Positions 2,999 through 26,018 of a stretch of DNA of 32,000 nucleotides are shown in pieces. The translations under genes were made by a program, and so were the position numbers. The number at the start of each line of letters is the position of its first letter. Position 1 is the first letter of the stretch. Location: positions 450,001 to 482,000 of the forward strand of contig NC_009776.1 in NCBI RefSeq assembly GCF_000017945.1, in the 5' to 3' direction. Source of the stretch: Ignicoccus hospitalis KIN4/I (GTDB lineage: Archaea; Thermoproteota; Thermoprotei_A; Sulfolobales; Ignicoccaceae). Under the pieces are notes generated by a model. That model did no database searches and was not told the DNA's origin. It saw nothing but the letters and a program-made list of their open reading frames with translations.

Positions 2999-3097
2999 TT
3001 GTGGAGGGTCGCGGTAGACGTAGGCGGCACGTTCACGGACCTCTTCGCCGTGGGTCCCAGAGGTTACGAAAGGGTCAAGGTGCTCTCCACCCCCTAA
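2999..3097 (+). other. detached 5' fragment (32 codons) of the hydantoinase/oxoprolinase gene, ending at TAA 3095-3097
   Basis: TTG 2999 then WRVAVDVGGTFTDLFAVGPRGYERVKVLSTP*. DVGGTFTD is the N-terminal ATPase phosphate-1 motif of the hydantoinase A family. Reading continues seamlessly in the next frame (KAPERGALEAIREFL...) if one C of the C5 run at 3090-3094 is removed. Confidence 0.6.
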
Positions 3098-3167
3098 GGC
3101 CCCCGAGAGGGGGGCCCTAGAGGCGATAAGGGAGTTCCTCCGCAAGACCCAAGTCGAGCCGGAGGAC

Positions 3168-5006
3168 GTGGGCATAGTGGTTCACGCTACCACGATAGCC
3201 ACCAACGCGCTGTTGGGACAAGAGGGGCTGGAGCTGGGAGAGGTAAGCTTGGTGACCACCAAGGGGTTCGAAGATATAATAGAAATTGCTAGACAATCGA
3301 GGCCCGCGCTGTACGACTTCTCCGGGAGGCGGCCCAAGCCCCTGGTGCCCCCGGAGCTGCGCTTCGGGGTGGAGGAGAGGACCTCTTGGGACGGGAGGGT
3401 TCTGAAAGAGGTAGACGAGGGCGAGCTGGCCTCCCTCGCCCCCAAGCTTCGGGGCACGGTCGCCGTGTGCTTCTTACACAGCTACTCCAACCCCCACAAC
3501 GAGGCCAAGGCCAAGGACGTGTTACGGAACTTGGGCTTCGAGGTAGTCGCCTCCCACGAGTCGGTTATGGAGATGAGGGAGTACGAGAGGTTCAGCACGA
3601 CCATAATAAACGCCGCCTTGAGGCCCGTGGTCAGCTCGTACCTCCTCAAGTTCCGCAAGGGGTTGGACGAGCTCGGGATAAGGGCTCCGCTCATGGTGGT
3701 CGCCAGCTCCGGGGGGCTGGTGGACGAGGAGGAGGCCAAGGCGAGGCCCGGCCAGCTGATAGAGAGCGGGCCGGCAGGAGGGGCGGTGGGCGCGGCCGCC
3801 TACGCGGCCGAGTTGGGGGTTGAGGAGGCCTTGGCCTTCGACATGGGCGGCACCACCGCTAAGGCGAGCGTGGTGGTTAAGGGCAGGCCGGCGCTGGTAC
3901 ACGAGTACGAGGTCGGCGGGAAGGTCCACGCCGGCAGGGTGGTGAAGGGCTCCGGCTACCCGGTTAGATACCCCTTCGTGGACGTGGCCGAGGTCTCCGC
4001 GGGAGGGGGGACCGTAGCGTGGGAGGAAGGAGGGGCGCTCCGCGTGGGGCCCAAGTCCGCGGGGGCCGACCCGGGGCCGGCGTGTTACGGCAGGGGAGGG
4101 AAGCAGCCCACCGTGACGGACGCGGACCTCCTCTTGGGGCGCCTCCCCGAGGAGCTCCCCACCGGGTTGAAGCTTAGGAGGGACCTAGCCCTCGAGGCCT
4201 ACTCCGAGCTCGCCCGGAGGCTCTCCGCGGAGCCCTTGGAGGTGGCGGCAGCAGTAATAGAGGCGATAACTGAGGAGATGGCCAGAGTGGTGAGGGTAGT
4301 GACGGTCGAGAGGGGCTTGGACCCCTCAGACTTGGTCATGATAGCCTACGGGGGCATGGGGCCCCTCCACGGCCCCGAGCTGGCGGAGTTCTTGGGAATG
4401 AAGGAAGTCCTCGTGCCCCCCGGGGCGGGGGTCTTCACAGCCGTAGGCATGCTGTTCGCCGACGCTATGTATAGCACATCAAAGACCGTTAACGCCCCCG
4501 CGGACGAGGACTTGGAGCCCACCTACGCCGAGCTGGAGGGGGTAGCAGTTTCGAGGATGAAGGCAGCTTCCATGGAACCCGACGAGGTGTTGAGGACTGC
4601 CGAGGCGCGCTACGAAGGTCAAGGGTGGACGGTGGAGGTTCCTGTGCCGAGACCCTACTCGCCCCAAGCGGTGAAGAGGGCCTTCGAGGAGGAGCACGAG
4701 AGGAGGTACGGCTTCACGTTGGACTCCGAAGTAATCGTGGAGACGGCGAGGGTTTATACGATTCACAAGTCACCGAAAGTTAGGGTAAAGGCCCCTCCGA
4801 CGGGCCCGGAGCTCCTCTGGGAGGGGGAAGCGTGGTTCCTCAAGCGGGGCTGGGAGGAGGCGAGGGCCTACGCGAGGTTCGGGAAGGGGGAAGTGGAGGG
4901 GCCGGCCATAATAGTGGACTACGACTCGGTGACCCTAGTGCCTCCGGGGTGGAGCGCCAAGGCGTTGGAGGACGGGAGCTTGTTGCTCAAAAAAGGCTCT
5001 ACTTGA
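3168..5006 (+). CDS. hydantoinase/oxoprolinase, A-type (HyuA / acetone carboxylase beta-like), main body
   Basis: 612 aa with HATTIATNALL, FDMGGTTAK, VSAGGGT and AYGGMGPLH, the actin-like ATPase motifs of hydantoinase_A. This frame is open from 3024 but has no start codon before GTG 3168. The true N-terminus lies in another frame (see 2999..3097). Confidence 0.85.
   Translation: MGIVVHATTIATNALLGQEGLELGEVSLVTTKGFEDIIEIARQSRPALYDFSGRRPKPLVPPELRFGVEERTSWDGRVLKEVDEGELASLAPKLRGTVAVCFLHSYSNPHNEAKAKDVLRNLGFEVVASHESVMEMREYERFSTTIINAALRPVVSSYLLKFRKGLDELGIRAPLMVVASSGGLVDEEEAKARPGQLIESGPAGGAVGAAAYAAELGVEEALAFDMGGTTAKASVVVKGRPALVHEYEVGGKVHAGRVVKGSGYPVRYPFVDVAEVSAGGGTVAWEEGGALRVGPKSAGADPGPACYGRGGKQPTVTDADLLLGRLPEELPTGLKLRRDLALEAYSELARRLSAEPLEVAAAVIEAITEEMARVVRVVTVERGLDPSDLVMIAYGGMGPLHGPELAEFLGMKEVLVPPGAGVFTAVGMLFADAMYSTSKTVNAPADEDLEPTYAELEGVAVSRMKAASMEPDEVLRTAEARYEGQGWTVEVPVPRPYSPQAVKRAFEEEHERRYGFTLDSEVIVETARVYTIHKSPKVRVKAPPTGPELLWEGEAWFLKRGWEEARAYARFGKGEVEGPAIIVDYDSVTLVPPGWSAKALEDGSLLLKKGST
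4989..4994 (-). terminator. oligo-T (T6) terminator candidate for the minus-strand gene 4999..5856
   Basis: A6 on the plus strand equals TTTTTT on the minus strand, 5 nt after the TAG stop (4999-5001). It lies inside the last codons (LKKG) of the convergent hydantoinase gene. Confidence 0.3.
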
Positions 5007-10100: not shown

Positions 10101-10913
10101 GGCTTGTTCGCGCCCAGGAGGTGGGGGGAGGGAGGGGCCCACGAGGCGATAAGGCCCACGAGGCCGCTGAGCGCGGAGGACCTCAAGAGGTTAATAGAGG
10201 AGGGCATGATAACGCCCCCTAGGGAGCTCAGCAAGCAACACTTCATGTTGTACGACATGATATTTAGGAGGTTTATGGCAAGCCAGATGAAGGAGGCGAA
10301 GGTTAAGAAAGCGGTGTACGAAATAACGGTTGAGGAGGGAGGTGCGGTAGTAGGCAAGAAGGTTTTGGAGAAATACGTAGAAAGGGTGTTCGACGGCTTC
10401 CTCTTAGTATACCCTATAGTCAAGATAGAGAGCCTCCCCGAGGGGGAGTACGAGGTTAAGGAGGTTAGGGCCGTCTCCCGCCACACGGTGCCCTTGTACA
10501 CCCAAGCCGACCTCATAAGGCTCATGAAGGAGAGGGGGCTCGGCAGGCCGAGCACCTACGCGAAGATAGTTAGTACCTTGCTCGAGAGGAGGTACGTAAC
10601 TCTGAGCAAGGTGGGCAAGAAACTCGTCCCCACGGTTAGGGGCTACGCTGTGTACTCGTACCTCACCGGGAAGGTAGTGGGCGCCGGCTGGGTTAGGAAG
10701 GCGCTGGAGGTCATCATAAATCCCGAGGGCAAGTCTAAGTACTTCCAAAAGCTGGTGGAAGAAGAGGCCACTAGGAGGTTGGAGAAGGTCATGGACGAGA
10801 TAGCGGAGAAGAAGGACGAGAAGATGTATATTAACGTACTCAAGGATATCATAGAGGAGACCAAGGTTATTCCTTTCCTAAGCGACAAGGGCGCTCAGCC
10901 CAGCCTCCGGTAG
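7134..10913 (+). CDS. rgy: reverse gyrase (SF2 helicase domain fused to type IA topoisomerase)
   Basis: N-terminal Zn finger CPSCGG...CDKC, Walker A APTGMGKST, DDVD box, Toprim IVESPNKARTI, second Zn finger CAVCGH...CPRCG, DPDTEGE, and active-site tyrosine context ITYHRTDS. 1259 aa. Confidence 0.95.
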   Translation: MYASYRRSCPSCGGEIEDVNLSLGLPCDKCLRVVGLESLKLDPSKKDSPSVRRRLIELGGPLGESLKLEEELESLEKVFQEVLGAPMWSAQRAWALRALRGESFSIVAPTGMGKSTLGALLSVYLSHKKKKKSYIIVPTTPLVDMMFRKVSAFAEAFGVRAVYFHSKMSPSQRKEMKERLLSGDFDVLITTSRFLINNLDLLKNYEFGFVFVDDVDSVLKSPKNVDRILMVLGLQESDVKRLEEVDKELSRKAQVLTKLQDLQKRYQLLKEMRELEEELEDLKRKVKGNLIVSSATGRAKGNRVRLFTRLLGFTPGGVGEGVRNVVDSYSRSSDVVEVVKKLGKGGLVFVPADLGAKGAEEVAEALRAAGVAAEVATSERIGVIKDFEEGRVEVLVGVATHYGVLVRGIDLPHVVRYAVFVGVPRFKFKLKLEEPSPMTIYRLCSLAARFFEECASLYAKLRKWVQRLGPAGLQSVEEALKEGSASTPASKDFMEAYTKLKEIIEKTDFIEKLKESGEVDVVAEDSLYVLIPDAATYLQASGRTSRLYAGGVTKGLSVVLVDSEPLFRGLKKRLAWVVEEWKEFESLNLSELLKEIDEDRKKVLKVIRGELKVEEVRDLMKTVLMIVESPNKARTITSFFGRPSVRQVKGVKVYEVTLGDKLLYVAASGGHVYDLVEEADPCNEEPCMLFGIRVKDVPEEVLSSIKRCAVCGHQFSGDVKECPRCGSPFIKDAKDVVDGLRELAQEVDEVLIGTDPDTEGEKIGWDLKNLISPFAKKIRRAEFHEITKKAILKALENPRDFDMGYVWSQMVRRAEDRLTGFTLSPKLWFELWPQLCEVSKEMKKKLLGCPLTRNLSAGRVQTPVLGWVIQRYEEYAKSKKKFYIIRFDGRELEFSEDELRGFSKKLAIDGKVKILKVEEEVEELKPLPPYTTDTMLEDASKLGLDPSRAMRVAQDLFEMGFITYHRTDSTRVSDAGIAVAREWITSKFEGLFAPRRWGEGGAHEAIRPTRPLSAEDLKRLIEEGMITPPRELSKQHFMLYDMIFRRFMASQMKEAKVKKAVYEITVEEGGAVVGKKVLEKYVERVFDGFLLVYPIVKIESLPEGEYEVKEVRAVSRHTVPLYTQADLIRLMKERGLGRPSTYAKIVSTLLERRYVTLSKVGKKLVPTVRGYAVYSYLTGKVVGAGWVRKALEVIINPEGKSKYFQKLVEEEATRRLEKVMDEIAEKKDEKMYINVLKDIIEETKVIPFLSDKGAQPSLR

Positions 10914-13777
10914 ACCTCTTCCAACACCTTCAAGTAGTCTTCGTCCTCCTCCAGTTTGATTCCGAGCTTGTCCGCCATCAGCTTCAGCGAGGACTCGCTG
11001 TTCAACTTCCTCCTCACCAGCGTGTATAAGTTCGTTACCAGCCCCCTGGTCGCGGCGGCCAAGTAGCTCTTGTAGACCAGCGGGTGGTCCTTGAGCGTCG
11101 CCTCGAGCTTCCTCTCCGGCATGTAAGTTACCGCCCTCCCGCTCGTGAACACGTCCACCAAAACTAACAAGTCCTTCGGGTTTGTAAACTTCTTCTTCAC
11201 TACGTTATTTCCTTTCTTTACCATTATAACGTCGTCAAATATCAAGAAGTAGTTGGCCTCCTTAGGTTTAGCCTCCATCTCCTTGATTGCCTCCAAGCCC
11301 TCGAACGCCTTCCCTCCCATCTCGGAAGTTAAGAAGGAAGCCAGCTCCTTGAGCTCGTTCCACCCCTCCTTCTTCAAGAACTCGCTTACCGAGTAGGGGT
11401 CCACCATTAAGGCCACCACTTCTGTGAGCTTGTCGTGTTTGTGGGACCTCACCTCCTCGCTCACGGCGTTCCAGTCCAAAGACTTCAAGAGGCCCGAGGC
11501 CTCCCTCTCCCACACCACCACCTCCTTAAAGCGGCCTTTCTTCAAGCTGTATGCTATTTCTGTGATGTCTATTGATTCTCTCACCCTCAAGACGGCGAGG
11601 GCATAGGCCAAGGCCGCGTAAACTTCCACTTCCTCCCAGTTGTCGCTTATCGGGTAGGCGTAGCCGTAAGTGTAGTCCTCGTACTCCCCGTAGACCCGCA
11701 CGTCCAGCGCCACCTCTTCCCGCTCGTAAACCGGGACGTAGCCCTTGCCCACCTTCTTCAAGTCCGCTTTGACCGACTCTATTATCCACTTCACGTGCAA
11801 GGGCTCCTCTGTCAGCTTGCCGAAGCCCCCCTCCGGGGGCCTCACCAACAGCTCAACCTTAGAGGTCAGCTTGCCGAACTTGTAGTCCTTTTCCGGCGTG
11901 GTCCACGTCTCACCCCACTTGGACTTTATCGTGTGGTACTGTTGGACGGCCTCGAAGGCCCAGCGGTAGCGCTTGACGGCGTCGCCCAAGGGCATTTCCA
12001 ATATCCCCTTTTCGTCCACCTCCACGACCACGGCGTCGGAGGAGTAGTCGAACGAGCCCGGCTGGAACCTCTCCACCAAGTCCCTCCTCCCCACCGGCTC
12101 GAGCCTCTCCTCCGAGCCTCCCCTCAGAACCCTCCTCGGCACCCCGTACGGGGGGCCGTACTCGTAGAAGCCCAAGTTCCTCCAGACCCTCTTGCCCTCG
12201 GGGGTCAGCCTCCCTCCTTCGTAGAGGCCTAAGGACTTCAACACCCTCTCCTCGTCCTCCCTCATTATTTGTCCGGCGACCGCCTTCCACAGGCCGGTGA
12301 ACATCTTCACCCACTCGTTGGTGGTATCTACGTAGAGCTTCTCCAAATCCATCTTTGCCCATTCCAACAGCGTGGAGGTCCCGTACTTCAACATCTTCTT
12401 GTCCCACTGGCGGAAGGGCAGAATTACGGTCTCCGTGAAGGCTATGTCGCCACGTCTCCCCTTCCTACCCTCCCTCTGTTTGAACTCCCTTACGGTGTCG
12501 GGCAAGCCCACGTGAACTACCCTAACTACGTGGCCTATGTCTATTCCTTGGGCTAGGGTCTTAGGGGATATTATTACCTTCAACTTGCCCTCTCTGGCCA
12601 TTTCCTCTATCTTGCTCCTCCTTTCTTTAGAGACCATGTAGTGGTGGGTAGCCACTTTGTCTTGTAGGTTCGGGGGGAGCCTGTGCTTGACCTCGCTCGC
12701 GAGCTTCTCCGCTTGCCTTATGCTGGGCACGAACACTAAGGTTAACCCTTCCCCCTCACACGTGACGTAGGAAGAAATTATCTCGGCGAAGTCCATCGAA
12801 GGGGAGGGGACCCTTACTCCCTTACTCCTCAACACTTCTACTATAGTAAACACGTTTTCCTTGAATACGTCGTAATCGGTCAAGGCCTCCGCAAGCTGCG
12901 GGACCTTGGAGATTACCTCCTCCCTCCTCGCCTTTATCCTCTCCCACAGCTTCTTCAAGTCCTTCGATATGACTAGGTACCCTCTGTTCTCAACCTTGAA
13001 CGGCTTCCCGGTGACTACCACGCTCTCCCTCCCCGTAACGTCCTCCAAGAGCTTCGCCACTTGCTCCGCGTTGCCCAAGGTGGCAGTTAACAAGACCACT
13101 TGTGGGGGCTTCTCGGCGTAGGAGGAGATTACCTCTATCATGCCCAATATCGCCGAGGTCCCGTGGGAGCCATAGAAGTCGAGCTCGTCGAAGACCAGTA
13201 GGTCAACTTTGAACAAGAACTCCCTTAAGTACCCCCTTCCCTCCGCAATCCTCTTCAAGTCTTGCATTAAGAAGGCCGGGTTGGTAGCGACTATCTTGGC
13301 GGAGCTCAAGTCGCCCAGCCTCTTGACCGTGGTAGAGTCGACCTTCACTACCGCCTCCGGCACTCCCAAGTCCTCGAAGTACTCCTTGAGCCTCCTCAGC
13401 TGGTCGGAGGAGAGCGCCAGGGTAGGGTAGACCGCTAAGGCCCTCATACCCCCGCGCACCGCGGCGAGCGCCCAAGCCTCGGTCTTGCCGGAGCCCGTGC
13501 CCGCCACCAAGATTACGTTCTTGCCCTTCTCGAGGGCCTCCACGGTCTCCACTTGGTGCTTGTAAGCGTACACCCCCTCGAGCCTCTTCAGCCCCGGCAC
13601 CAGCTCGTCGAACCTGACGCCGCTGAGCTCGGGCTCGCTCGGGGGCTCTCGGTAAGACTCGAAGTCGTAGCCCATTGACCTCAGCAGCTCTCCGCTGTCG
13701 CAAGGCTTGAGCATTTCACTTGCTCCTAACGCCCCCACGAGTCGGAAACTTAAGTTGGGAGCGTTGGAGTTGCTCAA
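10895..13777 (-). CDS. large SF2 (DEAD/DEAH-like) helicase with about 500-aa uncharacterised C-terminal region
   Basis: Motif I AGTGSGKTEA, Ia VYPTLALSSDQ, II FDELDF, III LTATLG, VI QREGRKGRRG. An alternative start at ATG 13714 (MLKPCDSGELL) would leave room for a divergent promoter (CTTAAGTTT at about 13749-13757). The 3' end overlaps rgy by 19 nt. Confidence 0.85.
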   Translation of the reverse strand: MSNSNAPNLSFRLVGALGASEMLKPCDSGELLRSMGYDFESYREPPSEPELSGVRFDELVPGLKRLEGVYAYKHQVETVEALEKGKNVILVAGTGSGKTEAWALAAVRGGMRALAVYPTLALSSDQLRRLKEYFEDLGVPEAVVKVDSTTVKRLGDLSSAKIVATNPAFLMQDLKRIAEGRGYLREFLFKVDLLVFDELDFYGSHGTSAILGMIEVISSYAEKPPQVVLLTATLGNAEQVAKLLEDVTGRESVVVTGKPFKVENRGYLVISKDLKKLWERIKARREEVISKVPQLAEALTDYDVFKENVFTIVEVLRSKGVRVPSPSMDFAEIISSYVTCEGEGLTLVFVPSIRQAEKLASEVKHRLPPNLQDKVATHHYMVSKERRSKIEEMAREGKLKVIISPKTLAQGIDIGHVVRVVHVGLPDTVREFKQREGRKGRRGDIAFTETVILPFRQWDKKMLKYGTSTLLEWAKMDLEKLYVDTTNEWVKMFTGLWKAVAGQIMREDEERVLKSLGLYEGGRLTPEGKRVWRNLGFYEYGPPYGVPRRVLRGGSEERLEPVGRRDLVERFQPGSFDYSSDAVVVEVDEKGILEMPLGDAVKRYRWAFEAVQQYHTIKSKWGETWTTPEKDYKFGKLTSKVELLVRPPEGGFGKLTEEPLHVKWIIESVKADLKKVGKGYVPVYEREEVALDVRVYGEYEDYTYGYAYPISDNWEEVEVYAALAYALAVLRVRESIDITEIAYSLKKGRFKEVVVWEREASGLLKSLDWNAVSEEVRSHKHDKLTEVVALMVDPYSVSEFLKKEGWNELKELASFLTSEMGGKAFEGLEAIKEMEAKPKEANYFLIFDDVIMVKKGNNVVKKKFTNPKDLLVLVDVFTSGRAVTYMPERKLEATLKDHPLVYKSYLAAATRGLVTNLYTLVRRKLNSESSLKLMADKLGIKLEEDEDYLKVLEEVYRRLG

Positions 13778-17034: not shown

Positions 17035-17050
17035 TAATTTTAAAATATTA
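17035..17050 (-). promoter_or_regulatory. AT-rich near-palindromic element, likely TATA box for 16735..16998
   Basis: TAATTTTAAAATATTA overlaps the stop codon of the upstream gene and is centred about 44 nt upstream of ATG 16998. It stands out in an otherwise GC-rich context. Confidence 0.35.
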
Positions 17051-17537
17051 CGGACTTTCCGAGAGCCGCCTCCACGGGTAAGGCCATCTCCCCGTCCGAC
17101 GCCCTCACGTAGTAGCACTCCTTCCTCAGACACTTGTAGGCCGTCAACGCACAGAGCGCTGCGTCCAAGAGGTCCCCCTCGAAGGGGAGGCCCACGAGCT
17201 TCCTCAAGGGGGCCGGGAAAGTTTCTATTACCTTTATTCCCCTCCCAACTAGTTCTTCCCTCAACCTCTTGCCCTCCTCCGCCAAGGCCCTCATGCCCCT
17301 CCAGCCGGGTGGCAACACCTTGAGCCCCGCCTTGCGGGCGACCAAGTCCACCTCCCTCCAAGTCCCCTCTGGGACCTCTAAGGGCGCGTCCACCGCGACG
17401 AGCTCCGGCCGGAGGGCTCCGAGCGTCGGCGCGAGCGCCTCGTTGTCCAAGAACTTAGTCCAGAAGTTGGATCCGTCAAAGATAGCTAAGGCAGAGGGCC
17501 TCTTAACCGCCAAGTCCACGCCGGCCGCCAGAACCAA
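17040..17537 (-). CDS. DUF429-like / RNase H-fold predicted nuclease
   Basis: N-terminal AAGVDLA (RuvC/YqgF-like GxD start), VAVDAPLEVPEG..REVDLVARKAG pattern as in DUF429 proteins. 165 aa with normal composition. Confidence 0.5.
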   Translation of the reverse strand: MVLAAGVDLAVKRPSALAIFDGSNFWTKFLDNEALAPTLGALRPELVAVDAPLEVPEGTWREVDLVARKAGLKVLPPGWRGMRALAEEGKRLREELVGRGIKVIETFPAPLRKLVGLPFEGDLLDAALCALTAYKCLRKECYYVRASDGEMALPVEAALGKSVIF

Positions 17538-18179: not shown

Positions 18180-18256
18180 TGGCGGGCCCGCCGGGATTTG
18201 AACCCGGGACCACCGGGTTAAAAGCCCGGCGCTCTTCCTGGCTGAGCTACGGGCCC
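18180..18256 (-). tRNA. tRNA-Lys (anticodon UUU), CCA encoded, no intron
   Basis: The reverse complement folds by hand as GGGCCCG-TA-GCTC-AGCCAGGAA-GAGC-G-CCGGG-CTTTTAA-CCCGG-TGGTC-CCGGG-TTCAAAT-CCCGG-CGGGCCC-G-CCA. All four stems are perfect Watson-Crick. 77 nt. Confidence 0.92.
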
Positions 18257-18314
18257 GGGCGTGGGGCCCTAAAAGAGGTTTTAGAGTTTTCCGCGAGGGC
18301 CTCGGGGCGAAGGC

Positions 18315-19103
18315 TTGAGGATTCTCCACGTAAGCGACCTCCACGGCTCCGTGAAAGCGTTCGAGCTGACTAAGGAGCTATACTTCAAGCTCGGGGCGGA
18401 CTTACTAGTGGTTTCCGGTGACTTGACGGGGAAGTGCGTTTCCAACGGCAAGGTAACCAAGTGCGTGTGGGGGAGGTTTAAGGACCCGCAGAGGATGGGC
18501 AGGGAACTGTTCTTGGCCTCCGGAGGTTACTTCGTAGAAGCTTCGGATACGGAGGTGGAGAGGAACGCCCCGGGACTCTTGGCGAGGGCGGCCGCGAGGA
18601 GGGTTAAGGAGTGGCTGGAAGGGCTAAAGGATTCGGGAGTGAAGTACTTCGTCATAGCGGGCAACGTGGACCACCCGTACATGGACGAGGTCTTGGAGGG
18701 TGACGAGGCCACGTTCTTCGGGCTCAAGTTCTGTGGGCTCTCATACGTGCCCTACACGCCCTTCGGGACCTACAGGGAGACGTCGGAGGAGAGGATAAGG
18801 GAGATGTTGCCAAAGGAGAGGTGCGATGTCTTAGTTTCCCACAGCCCCCCGAAGGGCTTCTTGGACTACAGCAACTACCGCGAGGGGGGCCACGTGGGCT
18901 CTGAGGCGGTGAGGGAATGGATCGAAAAGTATCAACCGACCTTAAGCTTACACGGCCACGTCCACGAGTCCCGGGGGACCGCCAGGCTGGGCAAGACGCT
19001 GGCAGTAAACCCCGGCTCTGAAGCGGAGCACGGCGCCTTGCTCTACGCGGTCATAGACTTGGACGGCGAGCCCGTCGCCTCCTTGGGAGAGGTGCGTTAC
19101 TAA
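18315..19103 (+). CDS. calcineurin-like metallophosphoesterase
   Basis: Ordered motifs VSDLHG, SGDLTGK, AGNVDH, SHSPP and HGHVHES. TTG start. About 65-aa insertion between motifs II and III. Confidence 0.85.
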   Translation: MRILHVSDLHGSVKAFELTKELYFKLGADLLVVSGDLTGKCVSNGKVTKCVWGRFKDPQRMGRELFLASGGYFVEASDTEVERNAPGLLARAAARRVKEWLEGLKDSGVKYFVIAGNVDHPYMDEVLEGDEATFFGLKFCGLSYVPYTPFGTYRETSEERIREMLPKERCDVLVSHSPPKGFLDYSNYREGGHVGSEAVREWIEKYQPTLSLHGHVHESRGTARLGKTLAVNPGSEAEHGALLYAVIDLDGEPVASLGEVRY

Positions 19104-19133
19104 AATCCCTCTCCGGCCCCTCCCGGCCCAGCC

Positions 19134-20135
19134 ATGGCGAACGCCCTACTGCTCGCGCTGAGGTCGCTCTGGCTGGGCGAGGAGCCCCCGTACGAGGAGG
19201 TCTTGGGGAGGGAGGGGGACGAGCGGGAAGTGAGGGAGCTGCTCTCTGGCTTGTGGGTAAAGTGCTACCCTCAAGGCGACAAGAGGCTGTGCGTCTACTC
19301 CTACAAGAGGCCTCCCAAGGATCCGGTGCCGCTCTTGCTGGACGCGCGGGGCACGGTGATAGAGTGGAGCAAGGACGGCCCGGAGCTGGTGGCCTACCCC
19401 TTTCACAAGTTCTTTAACTTGGGCGAGGCGGAGTTCCCGGAGAGGCCGCTCCTAGCGTACGAAAAGCTGGACGGCACCATGGTCTCCTTGTTCCTCTACG
19501 ACGGGGAGGTCAGGGCCGCGACGAGGAAAAAGCTGGACGTGGATTCTCCCTTCGCCAAAAAGGCGTTGGAGCTCTTCGAGGGCGAGCTGGGGGACGAGAC
19601 CAGGGTGTTCGAGCTGCTGGGCCCGGGGTCCGGGAGCCCCTGGGTCGGGGGCACCCAAGAGCTCTTGAGGGCCGGCGAGTGGTCCTTGGTCCCCTTGGCG
19701 TATAGGGACATGAAGACCTTGAAGTTGTATCCGTTGGAAGGTCCCACTAGGGTCGAGGTGGAAGACTTGGAAGACGCGAAGAGGAAGGCAGAAGGCTTCG
19801 GGGAGGGCTTGGTGTTGTGGTTCGAAGTGGGAAGCCAGAGGCCCTTGATGGCGAAGGTGAAGTCAGTTAAGTACAAGCGCTTGGTAGACCTCTTGAAGCT
19901 CGGGTGGGAAGGGCTGGCCAAGATAATACTGATGAACGCGTTGGACGACGCGGCCAGGATGTTGGACAATGAGGTATACTCCAAGGCAAAGGCTGTGGAG
20001 GGTATGCTGGACGAGATAGAGAGGGCCGTCTTGAGGGGGGAGTTCCCCCACGAGAGGGTTAGGGAGTGGCTCCCCATAGACCCCTCGAGGGCCCTAGAGG
20101 AGGCAGTGAGAGTTTGTCTGGAAGAAGGTTGTTGA
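19134..20135 (+). CDS. ATP-dependent RNA ligase, T4 RnlA (Rnl1)/Trl1-like nucleotidyltransferase
   Basis: ARGTVIE...HKFFNLGE followed by motif I EKLDGT (Lys111), motif III-like VFELLGP, motif IV GEGLVLWFE and motif V AKVKSVKY. Order and spacing parallel what I recall of phage T4 RnlA (CRGIMFE...EKFFNLNE...TKEDGSL...EGYVAV...FKIKSDWY). Confidence 0.7.
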   Translation: MANALLLALRSLWLGEEPPYEEVLGREGDEREVRELLSGLWVKCYPQGDKRLCVYSYKRPPKDPVPLLLDARGTVIEWSKDGPELVAYPFHKFFNLGEAEFPERPLLAYEKLDGTMVSLFLYDGEVRAATRKKLDVDSPFAKKALELFEGELGDETRVFELLGPGSGSPWVGGTQELLRAGEWSLVPLAYRDMKTLKLYPLEGPTRVEVEDLEDAKRKAEGFGEGLVLWFEVGSQRPLMAKVKSVKYKRLVDLLKLGWEGLAKIILMNALDDAARMLDNEVYSKAKAVEGMLDEIERAVLRGEFPHERVREWLPIDPSRALEEAVRVCLEEGC

Positions 20136-20512
20136 AGACCTTGTTCGTCGTAACTTGTAAGCCCGGGAAGGAGTTGCGCGCTGCGGAGGAGGTTATGGAC
20201 TTGTTGCTTTATTGCGACGAGGGGGCCTTGGCGGTTCCGACCGCTAAGGGGCTGGCATTGGGTACCACCTCCTTAGGACCCGAGGAGGCCGCTAAGTGCT
20301 TGGAAGGCAAGGTATCTGCATATATAAACTGGATATACTTTGGCGACGAGTTGTGCGAGAAGTGTAAGGCGTTGAAGAAACAATGCCTAGAGGAAGTGGA
20401 GGAGGGCTTTGAAGCCTTTTGCACGGGGAGGGCGATCGTGAAGATCAAAAAGGCTTTGAGGGCGAAAAGGGGAGTGTTGGTTAGTGTTCCTCTTCGCCGT
20501 AATGAGCGATAA
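20132..20512 (+). CDS. small protein, possible NFLD/THUMP-like RNA-binding fold (tentative)
   Basis: TTG 20132 overlaps the ligase stop (TTGA). MKTLFVVTCKPGKELRAAEEVMDLL resembles the N-terminal ferredoxin-like module that precedes THUMP domains. The track ORF start at 20066 lies inside the ligase gene and is unlikely. Confidence 0.4.
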   Translation: MKTLFVVTCKPGKELRAAEEVMDLLLYCDEGALAVPTAKGLALGTTSLGPEEAAKCLEGKVSAYINWIYFGDELCEKCKALKKQCLEEVEEGFEAFCTGRAIVKIKKALRAKRGVLVSVPLRRNER

Positions 20513-21911
20513 CAGCTCTTATGACCGGTCTCGCCAACAGCATGTAAACCATCATGCCCGCCGCGTGGGCCGCAACGGTCAAGGCCCACTCCATGGGGGT
20601 CGGGTAGTAGATCGCCAGCTTGCCCAGCACGTCCGGGGTGTAGCCCGGTATGACTATCGGCAGAGTCTTCTCACCTACCACCGCCAGTATTATCAAGGCG
20701 CTCAAGAAGACTACGCCCTTGCGCGTCTTCCTCAGCCTCGGCACGAATATGGTTAGTATTACGGCCAGCGAGCCGACGACTATCCAGAAGAAGTTCATTA
20801 GGGCCAAGTACTCCATGCCGGGGTAGCCCCAGCTGCAGCCGTTGAAGTTGGTGCCGCTGAAGAACACCGCGAAGTCCTTGAGTATCGGCTTCATTAGCGC
20901 GCAGAACGGCATGACGGCGAAGTTGAATATTCCTATCGCTTGGGCCCTCTTGTGGGGCTCAGTAGTGTACCAGAACAGCTCTTGGGCCTCCGACAAGGTG
21001 AAGTAGAGGCCGACGATCATGGCGGCGGTGGCCGCTATCAAAGTCTTTTCGTATACGTAGTTGGGAACCTTGAACTTCTTGTAGAACTTCTCGGCTATCA
21101 CAGATACTATTAATAACATTGCCGGACCGGCCGCTAAGGCAGTCGCCACGTAGCGCGGGGCCAGCAGAGGGGCGTTCCATATAGGCCTCGCCGTCAGGGG
21201 CTGGCTTATGAATCCCGTTACCGTGTGTATACCTATGGCCAGCGGCGCCGCGATAAGCATGAATAGGTACATGAGCCACTTAGGCGGGGCGTACTTGGGC
21301 CCCCTGCGGTACCAGTGAACCGCTATCAGTATCCCTATCAAGTTGACCACGAGGTACCCATTGAGCACCGTGAAGTCGTAGTCGAATATCGACTGCGGGT
21401 TGGGGAACTGGAGCTGGGCTACTATTGGTAGCGCCAGCAGCTGTATGGTCCTTATGGGCCGGCCGACGTCAACCAGCACGAGTAGTAGCGCCACTATAAG
21501 CGCCGCGACCGCTTGGACCTCCGCTAAGGGGGCAAGCCTCATGAACCCTTTGTCCCTGAAGACGTACGCTGCAACTCCGAACAGCACTCCCGCAGCTGCT
21601 ACTCCGACCCAGAAGACGAAGAACGAGATGTAGAGGCCCCACGCGACCCAGTCGTCCAACGCGGTGTAGACCATGCCTCCCCTATGCTCGCTAATGCCGA
21701 GCTGTTCCAACAGCTTGGGGTCCATGCCTAGGTGGTAGACCAGCTGGGTGTATATCGCTGGGCCCGCTTGTACGCCGGCCCAGAGACCCAAGCCGAAGGC
21801 GGTCAGACCGGCCATGGCGAATATCCACGTCCAGCCCCTCCAGTCGCCCTTGAACATGTGCTTTATTATGTACCATATGGTCACAAGAAACTCTACCACT
21901 GGGTTGCTCAC
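20481..21911 (-). CDS. NrfD/PsrC-type integral membrane quinone-interacting subunit
   Basis: 476 aa, at least 10 hydrophobic helices, W/Y/F-rich. Immediately downstream of a Tat-dependent 4-cluster FeS protein, the canonical arrangement of PsrBC, NrfCD, DsrOP and ActBC modules. Confidence 0.8.
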   Translation of the reverse strand: MSNPVVEFLVTIWYIIKHMFKGDWRGWTWIFAMAGLTAFGLGLWAGVQAGPAIYTQLVYHLGMDPKLLEQLGISEHRGGMVYTALDDWVAWGLYISFFVFWVGVAAAGVLFGVAAYVFRDKGFMRLAPLAEVQAVAALIVALLLVLVDVGRPIRTIQLLALPIVAQLQFPNPQSIFDYDFTVLNGYLVVNLIGILIAVHWYRRGPKYAPPKWLMYLFMLIAAPLAIGIHTVTGFISQPLTARPIWNAPLLAPRYVATALAAGPAMLLIVSVIAEKFYKKFKVPNYVYEKTLIAATAAMIVGLYFTLSEAQELFWYTTEPHKRAQAIGIFNFAVMPFCALMKPILKDFAVFFSGTNFNGCSWGYPGMEYLALMNFFWIVVGSLAVILTIFVPRLRKTRKGVVFLSALIILAVVGEKTLPIVIPGYTPDVLGKLAIYYPTPMEWALTVAAHAAGMMVYMLLARPVIRAVIAHYGEEEH

Positions 21912-23841: not shown

Positions 23842-24960
23842 ATGTTCAGCGTAACTACTTGGGGGGAGAGCCACGGCAAGGCGATAGGCGCGGTGATAGA
23901 CGGCTGCCCGGCCGGCTTGCCCCTCAGCGAGGAGGACCTCTTGGTCGAGCTCTCGCTCCGCAGGCCGGGGAGGAGGTTCACCACCCCGAGGAGGGAGCCG
24001 GACGTCCCAGAGATACTGAGCGGGGTGTTCAACGGAAAGACCACCGGCATGCCTATTTCAATAATAATAAGAAATAGGGACGTTATCTCGAGCTACTACG
24101 AGAAGATCAAGGAAACTCCCAGGCCAGGTCACGCGGACTTAGCGTACATAAAGAAGTACGGCTACGAGCACTGGGACTACAGGGGAGGCGGGAGGGCCTC
24201 TGGGAGGGAGACCGCTGCTAGAGTGGCGGCGGGGGCGGTGGCCAAGAAGCTGCTCGGCTGCTTAGGAGTGGTGGTCTCCGGCTACGTGGTGGAGCTGGGC
24301 GGGGTAGAGTTCCCGTCAGCCGAGGACGCGGAGGAGTCCTTGAGGTCCCGCCTCTCGCCCTTCCGGGTCTTGTGTTGTGAGGAGAAGGCCGAGGAGGTCT
24401 TGAAAGAGGCGCTCGAGAGGAGGGACAGCGTGGGCGGGGTGGTGGAAGCGGTCGCGTGGAACGCGCCGGCGGGCTTGGGCGAGCCGGTGTTCGACAAGCT
24501 CAAGGCGGACCTCGCGAAGGCCATGATGAGCATACCCGCCAGCGTGGGCTTCGAGGTAGGTTGGGGCTTCAAGCTGGCCCGGCTCAGGGGGAGCGAGGCG
24601 AGGGACAAGATAGTGAGCTCGGCCGGCGAGGCGACTGTGGAGGGGGACAAGGCCGGCGGAATGCTGGGCGGAATAAGCGTCGGGGCGCCGATAAGGATTA
24701 GGGTCGCGTTCAAGCCCACGAGCTCCATAATGATCCCGGAAAAGACGGTGAACATACACACGCTGGAGGAGACTGAGGTGGAGGTGCCCGGGAGGCACGA
24801 CCCGGCCATAGTTCTGAGGGCCGTTTCGGTGGTCGAGTCGATGTTCGCCATAGTCTTGGTGGATCACGCGATCAGGGCCGGCCTCTTGAACCCGGTGAGG
24901 GTCGAGTGGGGCCCCCACTGCCAGAGGGTCTGGGAGCTCTACGCGGATAGGGTGCCCTAG
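23842..24960 (+). CDS. aroC: chorismate synthase
   Basis: MFSVTTWGESHGKAIGAVIDGCPAGL, RRPGR, RPGHADL, GGGRASGRETA and GGISVG are classic AroC signatures. The longer track ORF from 23755 adds a non-conserved basic extension. Confidence 0.9.
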   Translation: MFSVTTWGESHGKAIGAVIDGCPAGLPLSEEDLLVELSLRRPGRRFTTPRREPDVPEILSGVFNGKTTGMPISIIIRNRDVISSYYEKIKETPRPGHADLAYIKKYGYEHWDYRGGGRASGRETAARVAAGAVAKKLLGCLGVVVSGYVVELGGVEFPSAEDAEESLRSRLSPFRVLCCEEKAEEVLKEALERRDSVGGVVEAVAWNAPAGLGEPVFDKLKADLAKAMMSIPASVGFEVGWGFKLARLRGSEARDKIVSSAGEATVEGDKAGGMLGGISVGAPIRIRVAFKPTSSIMIPEKTVNIHTLEETEVEVPGRHDPAIVLRAVSVVESMFAIVLVDHAIRAGLLNPVRVEWGPHCQRVWELYADRVP

Positions 24961-26018
24961 CGCTGCCAACACACGCCCTTTACCCTCATAACGAATGGCT
25001 TGTTCAGCTCACCCGATATTTCCACCTCGAGCTCCGGGAGGAACTTCTTAACCACGTGCACGTGGGTCCAAGCGTGCATGGTAAGGGCCGCGCCTCCCAC
25101 CTCGGTCCTTCCGCAAGCTAAGGAGACGTAAGGAACTATCATGTCGCTCATGTGCCTGTCCAAAGCCTTGCCCGTGCTCAAGTCCTCCAAGAGCTTCCGC
25201 GCCGCCTCCTCGCCCACCCTCTCGGCCCTCTTCCCCCTAGCTCCCAACGAGTCCGCGCCCAACAAGCTCCTCTCCGTTATGGCCCAAAGCACTATCCCGC
25301 TCCCGGGCCCCAAGTGGGGGTCCCTCTCCGGAGGGTACCACTCCAAGTCGATGTCTACGTTCTTTAGGCCGCTCTTCTTGAGGACCTCTTCGGCGGCCTT
25401 CGCTTGCCTCTCCGCGACGTGCTTAGGGAGCTTGACGCAGTGAGAGAGCCCGCGGACCTTCAGCACCTCGCCCCGCTCCACCTCCCCCCACTGGGTCAGT
25501 GAGTCCACAGGGCGGGAGGCGAACTCGACCTCTCCCCCTCCCTTGGGGTAGTGGCCTCGCCGCTTGAGGACCAACTCCGTCTTGGCGCCGAACCTCTCCA
25601 GGAGGGGATAGAAGACGAACCTCAAGTAGTCCACCGGAGGGCTCATCGGCACGTCCGTACCCCCTCTCAGCTGAACCCTGACCTCTCCGGGGGCGAAGAG
25701 AGCCGCGGGAGTTACTGCTTGCAAGACCAAGCTGACGCTGCCCGCGGTGCCTATGTCGAACCTAAACGTCCCGGCCTTCAAAGTCTTCGGTATGAACACT
25801 ATTTCGGTGGAGCCCAGCTCCAAGCCGCGGACCTCCGCGTCGGTCATCTCGGCCAAGGCCTTGACGGCCACCATGTGTTGCCTCCTCAAGCCCGGGTTCT
25901 TCCTCTTAGCCCTGATGTTGAATATTCTAACCGGTTTCAAAGTCACGGCAGAGAGTGCCACGGAGGTCCTAAGTATTTGGCCACCTCCCTCGCCGAAGGA
26001 GCCGTCTATCTCGATCAT
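24957..26018 (-). CDS. rtcA: RNA 3'-terminal phosphate cyclase
   Basis: MIEIDGSFGEGGGQILRTSVALS N-terminus and GHYPKGGGEV are typical RtcA. Candidate adenylylated His in the C-terminal ALTMHAWTHVHV region. 353 aa. Confidence 0.9.
   Translation of the reverse strand: MIEIDGSFGEGGGQILRTSVALSAVTLKPVRIFNIRAKRKNPGLRRQHMVAVKALAEMTDAEVRGLELGSTEIVFIPKTLKAGTFRFDIGTAGSVSLVLQAVTPAALFAPGEVRVQLRGGTDVPMSPPVDYLRFVFYPLLERFGAKTELVLKRRGHYPKGGGEVEFASRPVDSLTQWGEVERGEVLKVRGLSHCVKLPKHVAERQAKAAEEVLKKSGLKNVDIDLEWYPPERDPHLGPGSGIVLWAITERSLLGADSLGARGKRAERVGEEAARKLLEDLSTGKALDRHMSDMIVPYVSLACGRTEVGGAALTMHAWTHVHVVKKFLPELEVEISGELNKPFVMRVKGVCWQR

Follow-up and report, generated by a model that had tools for sequence, protein, structure and literature searches.

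A predicted T4 Rnl1-type RNA ligase and a small overlapping gene form a conserved pair in the Ignicoccus lineage

The sequence under study is a stretch of the Ignicoccus hospitalis genome that holds a gene for a predicted Rnl1-type ATP-dependent RNA ligase and a small gene overlapping its end; all coordinates are positions in the 32-kb window, meaning the whole stretch of DNA that was analysed. Three open reading frames (ORFs) follow one another on the plus strand: ORF1, a calcineurin-type metallophosphoesterase (MPE) of 262 amino acids (aa) with a TTG start (18315-19103); ORF2, the predicted ligase, 333 aa from an ATG start (19134-20135); and ORF3, the small ligase-linked gene (20114-20512). 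A tRNA-Lys(UUU) gene recognized by ARAGORN and Rfam (72.8 bits) occupies 18180/18183-18256 of the minus strand and points away from the MPE gene, and an Rfam scan of the whole window gave nothing beyond tRNA. This layout agrees with a preliminary description of the same DNA, which had reported three co-directional ORFs with a gap of 30 nucleotides (nt) between ORF1 and ORF2 and a divergent tRNA-Lys(UUU); the spacer between the tRNA gene and ORF1 measures 58 nt. The 4-nt TTGA overlap of ORF2 and ORF3 that it also gave holds for the TTG at 20132, the NCBI start (126 aa), which overlaps the TGA of ORF2, while an alternative in-frame TTG at 20114 gives 132 aa and an overlap of 22 nt. ORF3 probably starts at 20114, as its N-terminus then reads MSGRRLL, in agreement with the MSGERLL, MSGKRLL and MSEERLL that open three related proteins as called, making 22 nt the more likely overlap. 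All three genes are under purifying selection, with ratios of nonsynonymous to synonymous substitution rates (dN/dS) of 0.08-0.35 for the pairs with estimable dS and of approximately 0.14-0.29 for the ligase, figures that are rough as dS is close to saturation. The GC content of ORF3 is 52% (65% at third codon positions, GC3), compared to 61% (GC3 84%) for the ligase and 60% (GC3 81%) for the MPE gene; ORF3 is thus clearly below both, despite its translational overlap with the ligase.

ORF2 carries the motifs HKFFNLGE (residues 91-98), EKLDGT (110-115, containing Lys111), VFELLGP (158-164), EGLVLWFE (224-231) and AKVKSVKY (240-247), and can be divided into an Rnl1-like N-subdomain with nucleotidyltransferase core (approximately residues 40-244) and an all-helical C-domain (approximately 245-333). 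The Pfam family PF09511 (RNA_lig_T4_1) is matched at 30.7 bits over residues 71-152, with a threshold of 28.3, and is matched by 15 of the 15 family members, the best at 4.7e-13. The profile phrog_562 (T4 gp63, "RNA ligase and tail fiber protein attachment catalyst") matches ORF2 at 4.3e-22. A profile of the 15 homologues run against all PDB sequences has T4 Rnl1 as its sole match (E 1e-16, residues 49-285), and hhalign against T4-type Rnl1 results in a probability of 97.9 and an E of 3.4e-13. In the structural comparison, the AlphaFold2 model of ORF2 (mean predicted local distance difference test, pLDDT, 93) has T4 Rnl1 (2c5u) as its top Foldseek match in the PDB at 4.7e-12, followed at approximately 1e-6 by fungal Trl1 ligase domains and archaeal Rnl3; Rnl5, Rnl2 and DNA ligases are weaker. 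The preliminary description had likened ORF2 to T4 Rnl1 and not to Rnl3 or RtcB, and had proposed a profile search against the RNA ligase families; Pfam, PHROG, the PDB profile, hhalign and Foldseek all agree with that placement, with PF09511 above its threshold and Rnl5, Rnl2 and DNA ligases left behind in the fold comparison.

Catalytic residues of the T4 enzyme can be mapped onto ORF2. In the N-subdomain, R72 corresponds to R54, K92 to K75 and F93/F94 to F76/F77; in the core, K111 corresponds to K99, D113 to D101, G114 to G102, R131 to K119 and E160 to E159; and in motifs IV and V, E224/G225 correspond to E227/G228 and K241/K243 to K240/K242. The family alignment shows little or no variation at the mapped catalytic residues (R72 to K243). 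Among the 15 homologues, K111-L-D-G, E160, E224-G225 and K241-x-K243 are invariant, with motifs I, III, IV and V in order, and R72, K92 and F93 are likewise invariant. Other than Arg54 and Lys75, the T4 counterparts of these catalytic residues count as essential in the mutational literature on T4 Rnl1. Arg54 and Lys75 themselves touch the ATP gamma-phosphate and are essential (PMC6379707, which also deals with the neighbouring aromatic residue).

The region following motif V is where ORF2 appears to depart from the T4 enzyme. Which clade an RNA ligase belongs to is decided by the domain attached to its nucleotidyltransferase core (PMC6379707). The C-domain of ORF2 has approximately 89 aa and that of T4 Rnl1 approximately 120 aa; the hhalign alignment runs approximately 40 residues beyond motif V, including an LDD/SDD element, and the C-domain in the ORF2 model is all helical. 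None of the 15 family members matches the T4 C-domain model PF20819 (T4_Rnl1_C) at E<=10, compared to 3e-39 for the T4-type control. Relatives aligning over the full profile, scanned as possible intermediates to T4_Rnl1_C, gave no match to PF20819 either. Longer Rnl1-like proteins from an exhaustive search were scanned for a fused kinase, phosphatase or THUMP domain and had none; one carries T4_Rnl1_C. Since the C-domain fits no T4_Rnl1_C model, the specificity of the T4 enzyme for the tRNA anticodon loop is not transferable to ORF2. The NCBIfam equivalog model TIGR02308 scores 16.9 bits against ORF2, far under its cut-off of 242, and ORF2 is therefore not an equivalog of T4 RnlA. Judged from sequence and predicted structure, ORF2 is an Rnl1-type adenylyltransferase with an apparently divergent C-domain. 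Databases label the 100% identical protein as "RNA ligase [Ignicoccus hospitalis]" (NCBI) and "T4 RNA ligase 1-like N-terminal domain-containing protein" (UniRef). At the very C-terminus (residues 328-333) a Cys pair, C-L-E/K/R-x-G-C, is seen in most family members, the protein P0010 being an exception.

Eight loci of the Ignicoccus lineage were compared, comprising I. hospitalis, I. islandicus, I. pacificus and five loci from metagenome-assembled genomes (MAGs), with ligase identities of 59-76%. In all eight, ORF3 lies directly 3' of the ligase and overlaps its stop, by 4-37 nt. The genes on either side of the two vary: upstream neighbours of the ligase are of six kinds (MPE, a 220-aa membrane protein, a prenyltransferase, a Macro-domain gene, pilin-like genes and a nucleotidyltransferase), and downstream neighbours of the pair are of three (NrfD, a DNA methyltransferase and a pyridine-nucleotide oxidoreductase). 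The conserved unit is the ligase with ORF3. As ORF3 overlaps the ligase stop in all eight loci, the two genes are probably translationally coupled. A simple scan for AT-rich boxes, which served as the promoter search, found one approximately 13-38 nt before the ligase start in 8/8 loci regardless of the upstream gene; in I. hospitalis it is the TATA-like box TTACTAAAAT on the plus strand (19097-19106), 28-37 nt before the ATG of the ligase, where it takes in the stop codon of MPE. Its spacing to the ATG resembles that of a TTTTAG box (18279) to the MPE start, and this candidate box suggests that the ligase and ORF3 may have their own promoter.

The ORF3 family has 18 members found, all in the Ignicoccus lineage, and no Pfam domain was detected in the seven members scanned, THUMP (PF02926) and DUF3195 included. 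In the AlphaFold2 model of ORF3 (pLDDT 77), a ferredoxin-like core of beta-alpha-beta-beta-alpha-beta order lies in the N-terminal half and is accompanied by a loop of low confidence and a C-terminal beta-hairpin. The loop region holds four conserved cysteines, three of which are invariant, with the fourth positioned 1-2 residues after the first. The top Foldseek match is 1rki (PAE0736) at 7e-4, and the family profile run against the PDB has 1rki as its sole match (E 0.003); PAE0736 is assigned in SCOP to the THUMP domain-like superfamily (PMC3779223). The next fold matches are N-terminal segments of RlmM, TrmN, ThiI and RlmKL, 73-84 columns in length with E of 0.03-0.4; these fold matches cover the ferredoxin-like part only. 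A search of viral predicted structures gave nothing below E 0.08. The preliminary description had compared the ORF3 N-terminus to the ferredoxin-like module that precedes THUMP domains; the matches to 1rki and to the N-terminal modules of THUMP enzymes point the same way, although weakly.

In the contigs of the Pyrobaculum type, genes of the DUF3195/PAE0736 family were looked for beside RNA ligases and were instead found between RFC and Orc1/Cdc6 genes. They are directly upstream of Orc1/Cdc6 at 3995-4291 in L016, 3992-4288 in L029 and 3992-4288 in L019. In L016 and L029 the DUF3195 gene overlaps the end of the RFC-large gene, the order being RFC-small, RFC-large, DUF3195 and Orc1/Cdc6; the upstream gene differs in L019. 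This gene order suggests a replication-linked role for the THUMP-like DUF3195 family.

Within the covalent lysine nucleotidyltransferases, ORF2 falls in the T4 Rnl1-type branch, as a cellular protein conserved across the genus. Of 5.8 billion proteins searched with a word index, only 13 proved to be close homologues, at 59-83% identity; they belong to I. islandicus, I. pacificus and hydrothermal MAGs, and two more matches were distant. When 1.8 billion representatives, among which the Ignicoccus ligases are one 50%-identity cluster, were searched exhaustively with a profile, 11,246 relatives emerged, ten of them scoring below 1e-30. One of these ten is P0019 (40% identity), encoded on the MAG contig L015 among archaeal-looking neighbour genes. 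The other near relatives that could be placed are on phage-like contigs (L013, which bears an HNH gene, L030 and L031), and GenBank phage genomes match the ligase at 25-34% identity. In L031, which encodes the near relative P0027, the second gene upstream is that of a P-loop kinase (AAA_33/Zeta_toxin; 4277-4819) and the fourth that of an ATP-dependent DNA ligase (3051-4127); this order resembles the classical phage arrangement of kinase plus ligase, which the archaeal loci do not have. The ORFs that lie over the ligase stop in L030 (115 aa) and L031 (116 aa) were considered as counterparts of ORF3 and rejected, since hhalign and BLASTP found them unrelated to ORF3 or to each other. The distribution fits an old acquisition of the ligase, possibly viral, that has been kept by purifying selection.

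ORF1 has the motifs SDLHG (residues 7-11), SGDLTG (34-39), GNVDH (116-120), SHSPP (175-179) and HGHVHE (213-218), and matches the Pfam families Metallophos_3 (5.7e-15) and Metallophos (1.2e-12, profile positions 1-190 of 191). The complete calcineurin-like motif set attributed to it earlier is thereby borne out by five metal-binding motifs and a full-length Metallophos match, and all of the motifs quoted for ORF1 and ORF2 in the preliminary description are present. By sequence, MPPED2 and aq_1956 are the PDB entries closest to ORF1. The GDLTG and GNVDH motifs are of the YfcE/Metallophos_2/3 type and not the GDxxDRG/GNHE of lambda phosphatase and CthPnkp. The PADLOC profile for the single-gene phage-defence candidate PDC-S10 also matches the MPE (4e-24, 83 bits, profile positions 91-204 of 223), which was taken as a general resemblance within the MPE subfamily; functional information on PDC-S10 was not found in the literature, where a lone mention in a jumbophage survey on another subject was the only trace of it.

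The MPE gene is directly beside the ligase only in I. hospitalis. In the MAG lineages L004/L005 and L006 an unrelated gene for a 220-aa multi-pass membrane protein lies between the two (3351-4013 in L004, 4313-4972 in L006); its motifs, YNRKIIHITAGG and GDGVTGIIR, are reminiscent of CTP-dependent polyprenol/dolichol kinases. An AIM24 gene is placed between tRNA-Lys and MPE in L004 and L006, and the 32-kb I. hospitalis window has neither AIM24 nor the membrane-protein gene. The MPE orthologue of I. pacificus (64% identity) is at approximately 443-452 kb and the ligase at approximately 80 kb, and in the MAG JALWJF the two are on different contigs, both orthologues coming from a genome scan that picks up close relatives only. 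In I. islandicus and L008, approximately 6 kb and 5 kb respectively to the left and right of the ligase contained no MPE match. The tRNA-Lys gene is near the ligase block in the hospitalis clade only (also in L004 and L006), and no tRNA gene was detected approximately 5-6 kb on each side of the ligase in L001, L003, L007 and L008. Lastly, rtcA (24957-26018, minus strand) is found 4445 nt past ORF3, in line with the distance of about 4.4 kb given earlier and its position outside the gene cluster; no rtcA was found in the fetched flanks of the other ligases (approximately 4-6 kb each side), only in I. hospitalis. The MPE and tRNA-Lys genes are lineage-specific neighbours and not conserved parts of the unit.

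In weighing what the locus encodes, the reading that we lean towards is that the ligase and ORF3 may constitute a two-gene RNA-sealing unit, with MPE and tRNA-Lys merely as lineage-specific neighbours. The preliminary description had instead proposed a three-gene cassette in which MPE, ligase and ORF3 form one heal-and-seal operon that repairs breaks in tRNA anticodon loops, possibly of the neighbouring tRNA-Lys(UUU), a proposal that we regard as unlikely; MPE would then strip 2',3'-cyclic or 3'-phosphate ends. In its favour, the genes are co-directional with a gap of 30 nt, MPE is retained in the genus and evolves under purifying selection, and three genomes of the hospitalis clade share the synteny of MPE, the ligase region and tRNA-Lys. 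The solved relatives nearest to MPE include MPPED2-type phosphodiesterases, and bacterial Pnkp heals RNA ends with a calcineurin-type phosphoesterase. Against it, the motifs of ORF1 are not of the lambda phosphatase/CthPnkp type. The comparative loci speak against such an operon: MPE is unlinked in I. pacificus and the MAG JALWJF, has no match in the I. islandicus or L008 flanks, and is split from the ligase by the membrane-protein gene in L004 and L006, so that a 3'-end-healing phosphoesterase consistently linked to the ligase is lacking (MPE being unlinked or not nearby in I. pacificus, I. islandicus, L007/L010 and L008). Furthermore, a TATA-like box lies between MPE and the ligase, and no tRNA gene was detected in approximately 5-6 kb around the ligases of four lineages. 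A 5'-kinase domain was found in none of ORF1-3 or the ten neighbouring ORFs scanned, as the preliminary description had also observed, nor among the Pfam domains of the related loci from archaea. As the comparative loci break both, the three-gene cassette and the link to tRNA-Lys represent local synteny and not a conserved system. What stands of the proposal is the ligase/ORF3 pair (8/8 loci), while proximity to MPE, tRNA-Lys and rtcA is not conserved; its check by gene neighbourhood, as carried out on the eight loci, finds MPE not syntenic with the ligase outside the hospitalis clade.

The other two alternatives leave MPE aside. A ligase captured from a virus could now be acting in virus-host conflict and not in housekeeping RNA processing, either in defence or in counter-defence, for example by reversing ribotoxin damage, with ORF3 as an unrelated or regulatory addition of the lineage. 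The nearest non-archaeal relatives are indeed phage-encoded or on phage-like contigs, a P-loop kinase is near the ligase in L031, and the archaeal spread is very narrow (13 close homologues; one cluster plus P0019); in addition, I. islandicus has CRISPR-Cas genes approximately 1.9 kb downstream of the ligase, while L008 has a gene for Csx1 approximately 3.4 kb upstream. The ligase is nevertheless present in all sampled Ignicoccus genomes, in varied chromosomal contexts with no integrase or viral genes nearby, its composition is host-like (GC3 0.84 compared to 0.81 for MPE), and a PADLOC scan gave nothing for the ligase or ORF3. We consider this explanation improbable, and an ancient viral capture would also be compatible with a ligase/ORF3 unit while leaving the present function undecided. 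Very unlikely, in our judgement, is that ORF3 is functionally unrelated and adjacent simply through inherited order in a compact genome, with the ligase working alone like the monomeric T4 Rnl1. Crenarchaeal genomes are dense and unrelated overlaps are common in them, as between ORF3 and the NrfD gene (32 nt), and the nearest ORF3 relative is in a DNA-replication context; yet the pair is intact in eight loci while both flanks changed repeatedly, and the ORF3 family is found only in the lineage holding this ligase clade. The archaeal orthologue in L015 (40% identity), which has no ORF3 downstream, favours the solitary ligase and also weighs on the two-gene reading that we prefer. Other points count against that reading as well. 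ORF2 passes PF09511 narrowly, by 2.4 bits over residues 71-152 only, and its C-domain is without a T4_Rnl1_C match. The likeness of ORF3 to THUMP-like proteins is weak (Foldseek 7e-4, profile E 0.003, approximately 20% identity), ferredoxin-like folds are common, with NGN and RRM domains also among the ORF3 matches, and its closest relative, Pyrobaculum DUF3195, has a replication (RFC, Orc1/Cdc6) and not an RNA context. The hospitalis clade keeps MPE near the ligase, and a role of MPE there is possible; it could act on RNA ends in vivo, and nothing in this analysis ties it to RNA. The roles given to the ligase and ORF3 are inferred from sequence comparison and predicted models.

If the ligase and ORF3 do form an RNA-sealing unit, Lys111 would attack ATP to form ligase-AMP, as expected from the family and established for T4 Rnl1, while Arg72 and Lys92, the equivalents of T4 Arg54 and Lys75, would hold the gamma-phosphate. 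The AMP would then move to a 5'-PO4 RNA end, and attack by a 3'-OH end would seal the break. ORF3 may be an accessory or substrate-recognition subunit on the basis of its strict linkage, overlap and co-distribution with the ligase. Such a role would parallel that of the Hen1 N-terminal half, which completes the Rnl4 ligase of bacterial Pnkp, and that of the T4 Rnl1 C-domain, which gives tRNA specificity (PMC6379707). A structured RNA of the cell is the probable substrate, its 3'-OH/5'-PO4 break or ends being joined in repair or circularisation, and end-healing enzymes, if needed, would be encoded elsewhere. A more specific form of this proposal, which we hold as doubtful, is a two-subunit hyperthermostable RNA ligase in which a THUMP-like ORF3 with a metal site or disulfides would supply in trans the recognition of tRNA or structured RNA that the C-domain provides in T4.

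Rnl1-type ligases have been published from phages, fungi and plants, and archaeal RNA ligation has been ascribed to RtcB and Rnl3 (PMC4606414, PMC3400036); a literature search found no paper on this ligase or on any archaeal Rnl1-type enzyme. The existence of the ligase is not new, as it is publicly annotated; what is new is its conserved pairing with an orphan protein that may be THUMP-like and its apparently divergent C-domain. A genus-conserved Rnl1-type enzyme suggests that some Crenarchaeota may have a second RNA-sealing route, one needing 5'-PO4 and 3'-OH ends, and the strictly linked orphan ORF3 is a candidate specificity or activating subunit in trans. If true, the two-subunit form would amount to a new ligase clade defined by a trans-acting partner and to the first cellular archaeal pathway of 5'-PO4/3'-OH RNA sealing on an Rnl1-type enzyme, alongside RtcB. 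I. hospitalis grows near 90 °C, and a hyperthermostable single-stranded RNA ligase of the T4 Rnl1 type would serve adapter ligation in RNA-seq. The locus also carries a more general lesson: when a single compact genome is read without comparison to relatives, what looks like an operon beside a tRNA gene can be misleading.

Several neighbouring genes complete the description of these loci. In the I. hospitalis window, an NrfD-like membrane gene (20481-21911, minus strand) is convergent with ORF3 on the plus strand, their 3' ends overlapping at 20481-20512. The downstream block that begins with it, of NrfD, a 4Fe-4S protein, a cytochrome c7-like protein and chorismate synthase, is syntenic in L004, L006 and L007. 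A 960-aa DEAD/DEAH helicase (10895-13777, minus strand) and a DUF429 protein (17040-17537, minus strand) are encoded upstream of the tRNA gene, and neither has a conserved linkage to the ligase among the loci examined. In L008 (MAG GCA_054016855.1), a Macro-domain gene (4414-4950, minus strand) is divergent from the ligase and 50 bp from its start, and a gene with THUMP and UPF0020 methyltransferase domains (3206-4207, minus strand) lies just past it, with Csx1 further upstream; this arrangement is from a single genome. The yeast-type Trl1/Tpt1 route of ligation yields ADP-ribose-1''-phosphate as a by-product, and this compound is processed by Macro domains.

Among known systems, T4 Rnl1 (RnlA, gp63; PDB 2c5u, 5tt6 and 9do4) is the closest to ORF2, having the same N-subdomain and nucleotidyltransferase core in the same motif order. 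A helical domain follows motif V in T4 Rnl1 and in the model of ORF2, and its first approximately 40 residues can be aligned; overall identity, however, is only 17-19%. T4 Rnl1 is viral, whereas ORF2 is cellular and archaeal and has no Pnkp partner, and in Ignicoccus a small separate partner gene is conserved beside the ligase that T4 does not have. The fungal Trl1 ligase domain (Rnl6; PDB 6n0t and 9qw7) also has the Rnl1-like N-subdomain and core in common with ORF2 and is the second-best fold match, at approximately 1e-6. Trl1 differs in its fused kinase and cyclic phosphodiesterase domains, neither of which is present in the 333 aa of ORF2. An RxxR sequence after motif V has been proposed as the 2'-PO4 binder of Trl1 (PMC6379707), and it is not conserved in the Ignicoccus family, where KYKR, KYMR, KYQN, EYQD and others vary at this position. 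Assignment of ORF2 to Rnl6 was rejected on these grounds, together with a fold match weaker than that to T4 Rnl1. The archaeal Rnl3 enzymes (Pyrococcus abyssi Pab1020, MthRnl and Palaeococcus pacificus Rnl) are thermostable ATP-dependent single-stranded RNA ligases with an Rnl1-like N-terminal domain. Their fold match to ORF2 is five to six orders of magnitude weaker than that of T4 Rnl1 (approximately 1e-6 compared to 4.7e-12), the family profile finds T4 Rnl1 and no Rnl3 among PDB sequences, and the dimerisation and C-terminal domains of Rnl3 were not detected; ORF2 was accordingly not classed as Rnl3.

For ORF3, the closest known protein is PAE0736/DUF3195 (1rki), both being small, Cys-rich crenarchaeal proteins, with approximately 20% identity and ORF3 members that do not reach the Pfam DUF3195 model. 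The structure 1rki is notable for three disulfides, and for this reason the cysteines of ORF3 could form disulfides rather than bind metal. The pairing of ligase and ORF3 can be compared to bacterial Pnkp/Hen1, a system described in PMC1920235, as a functional analogy only. Similarity of ORF3 to Hen1 was not detected, the Pnkp kinase domain and the Hen1 methyltransferase are not in the window, and no Rnl4 structure is among the top 50 fold matches of ORF2. A calcineurin-type phosphoesterase shares in healing in the bacterial system, whereas the Ignicoccus phosphoesterase is a separate gene with inconsistent linkage. The analogy lies in the division of labour: in the Rnl4 exemplar, CthPnkpC-Hen1N (PMC6379707), an adenylyltransferase with an Rnl1-like N-submodule works with a separately encoded protein.

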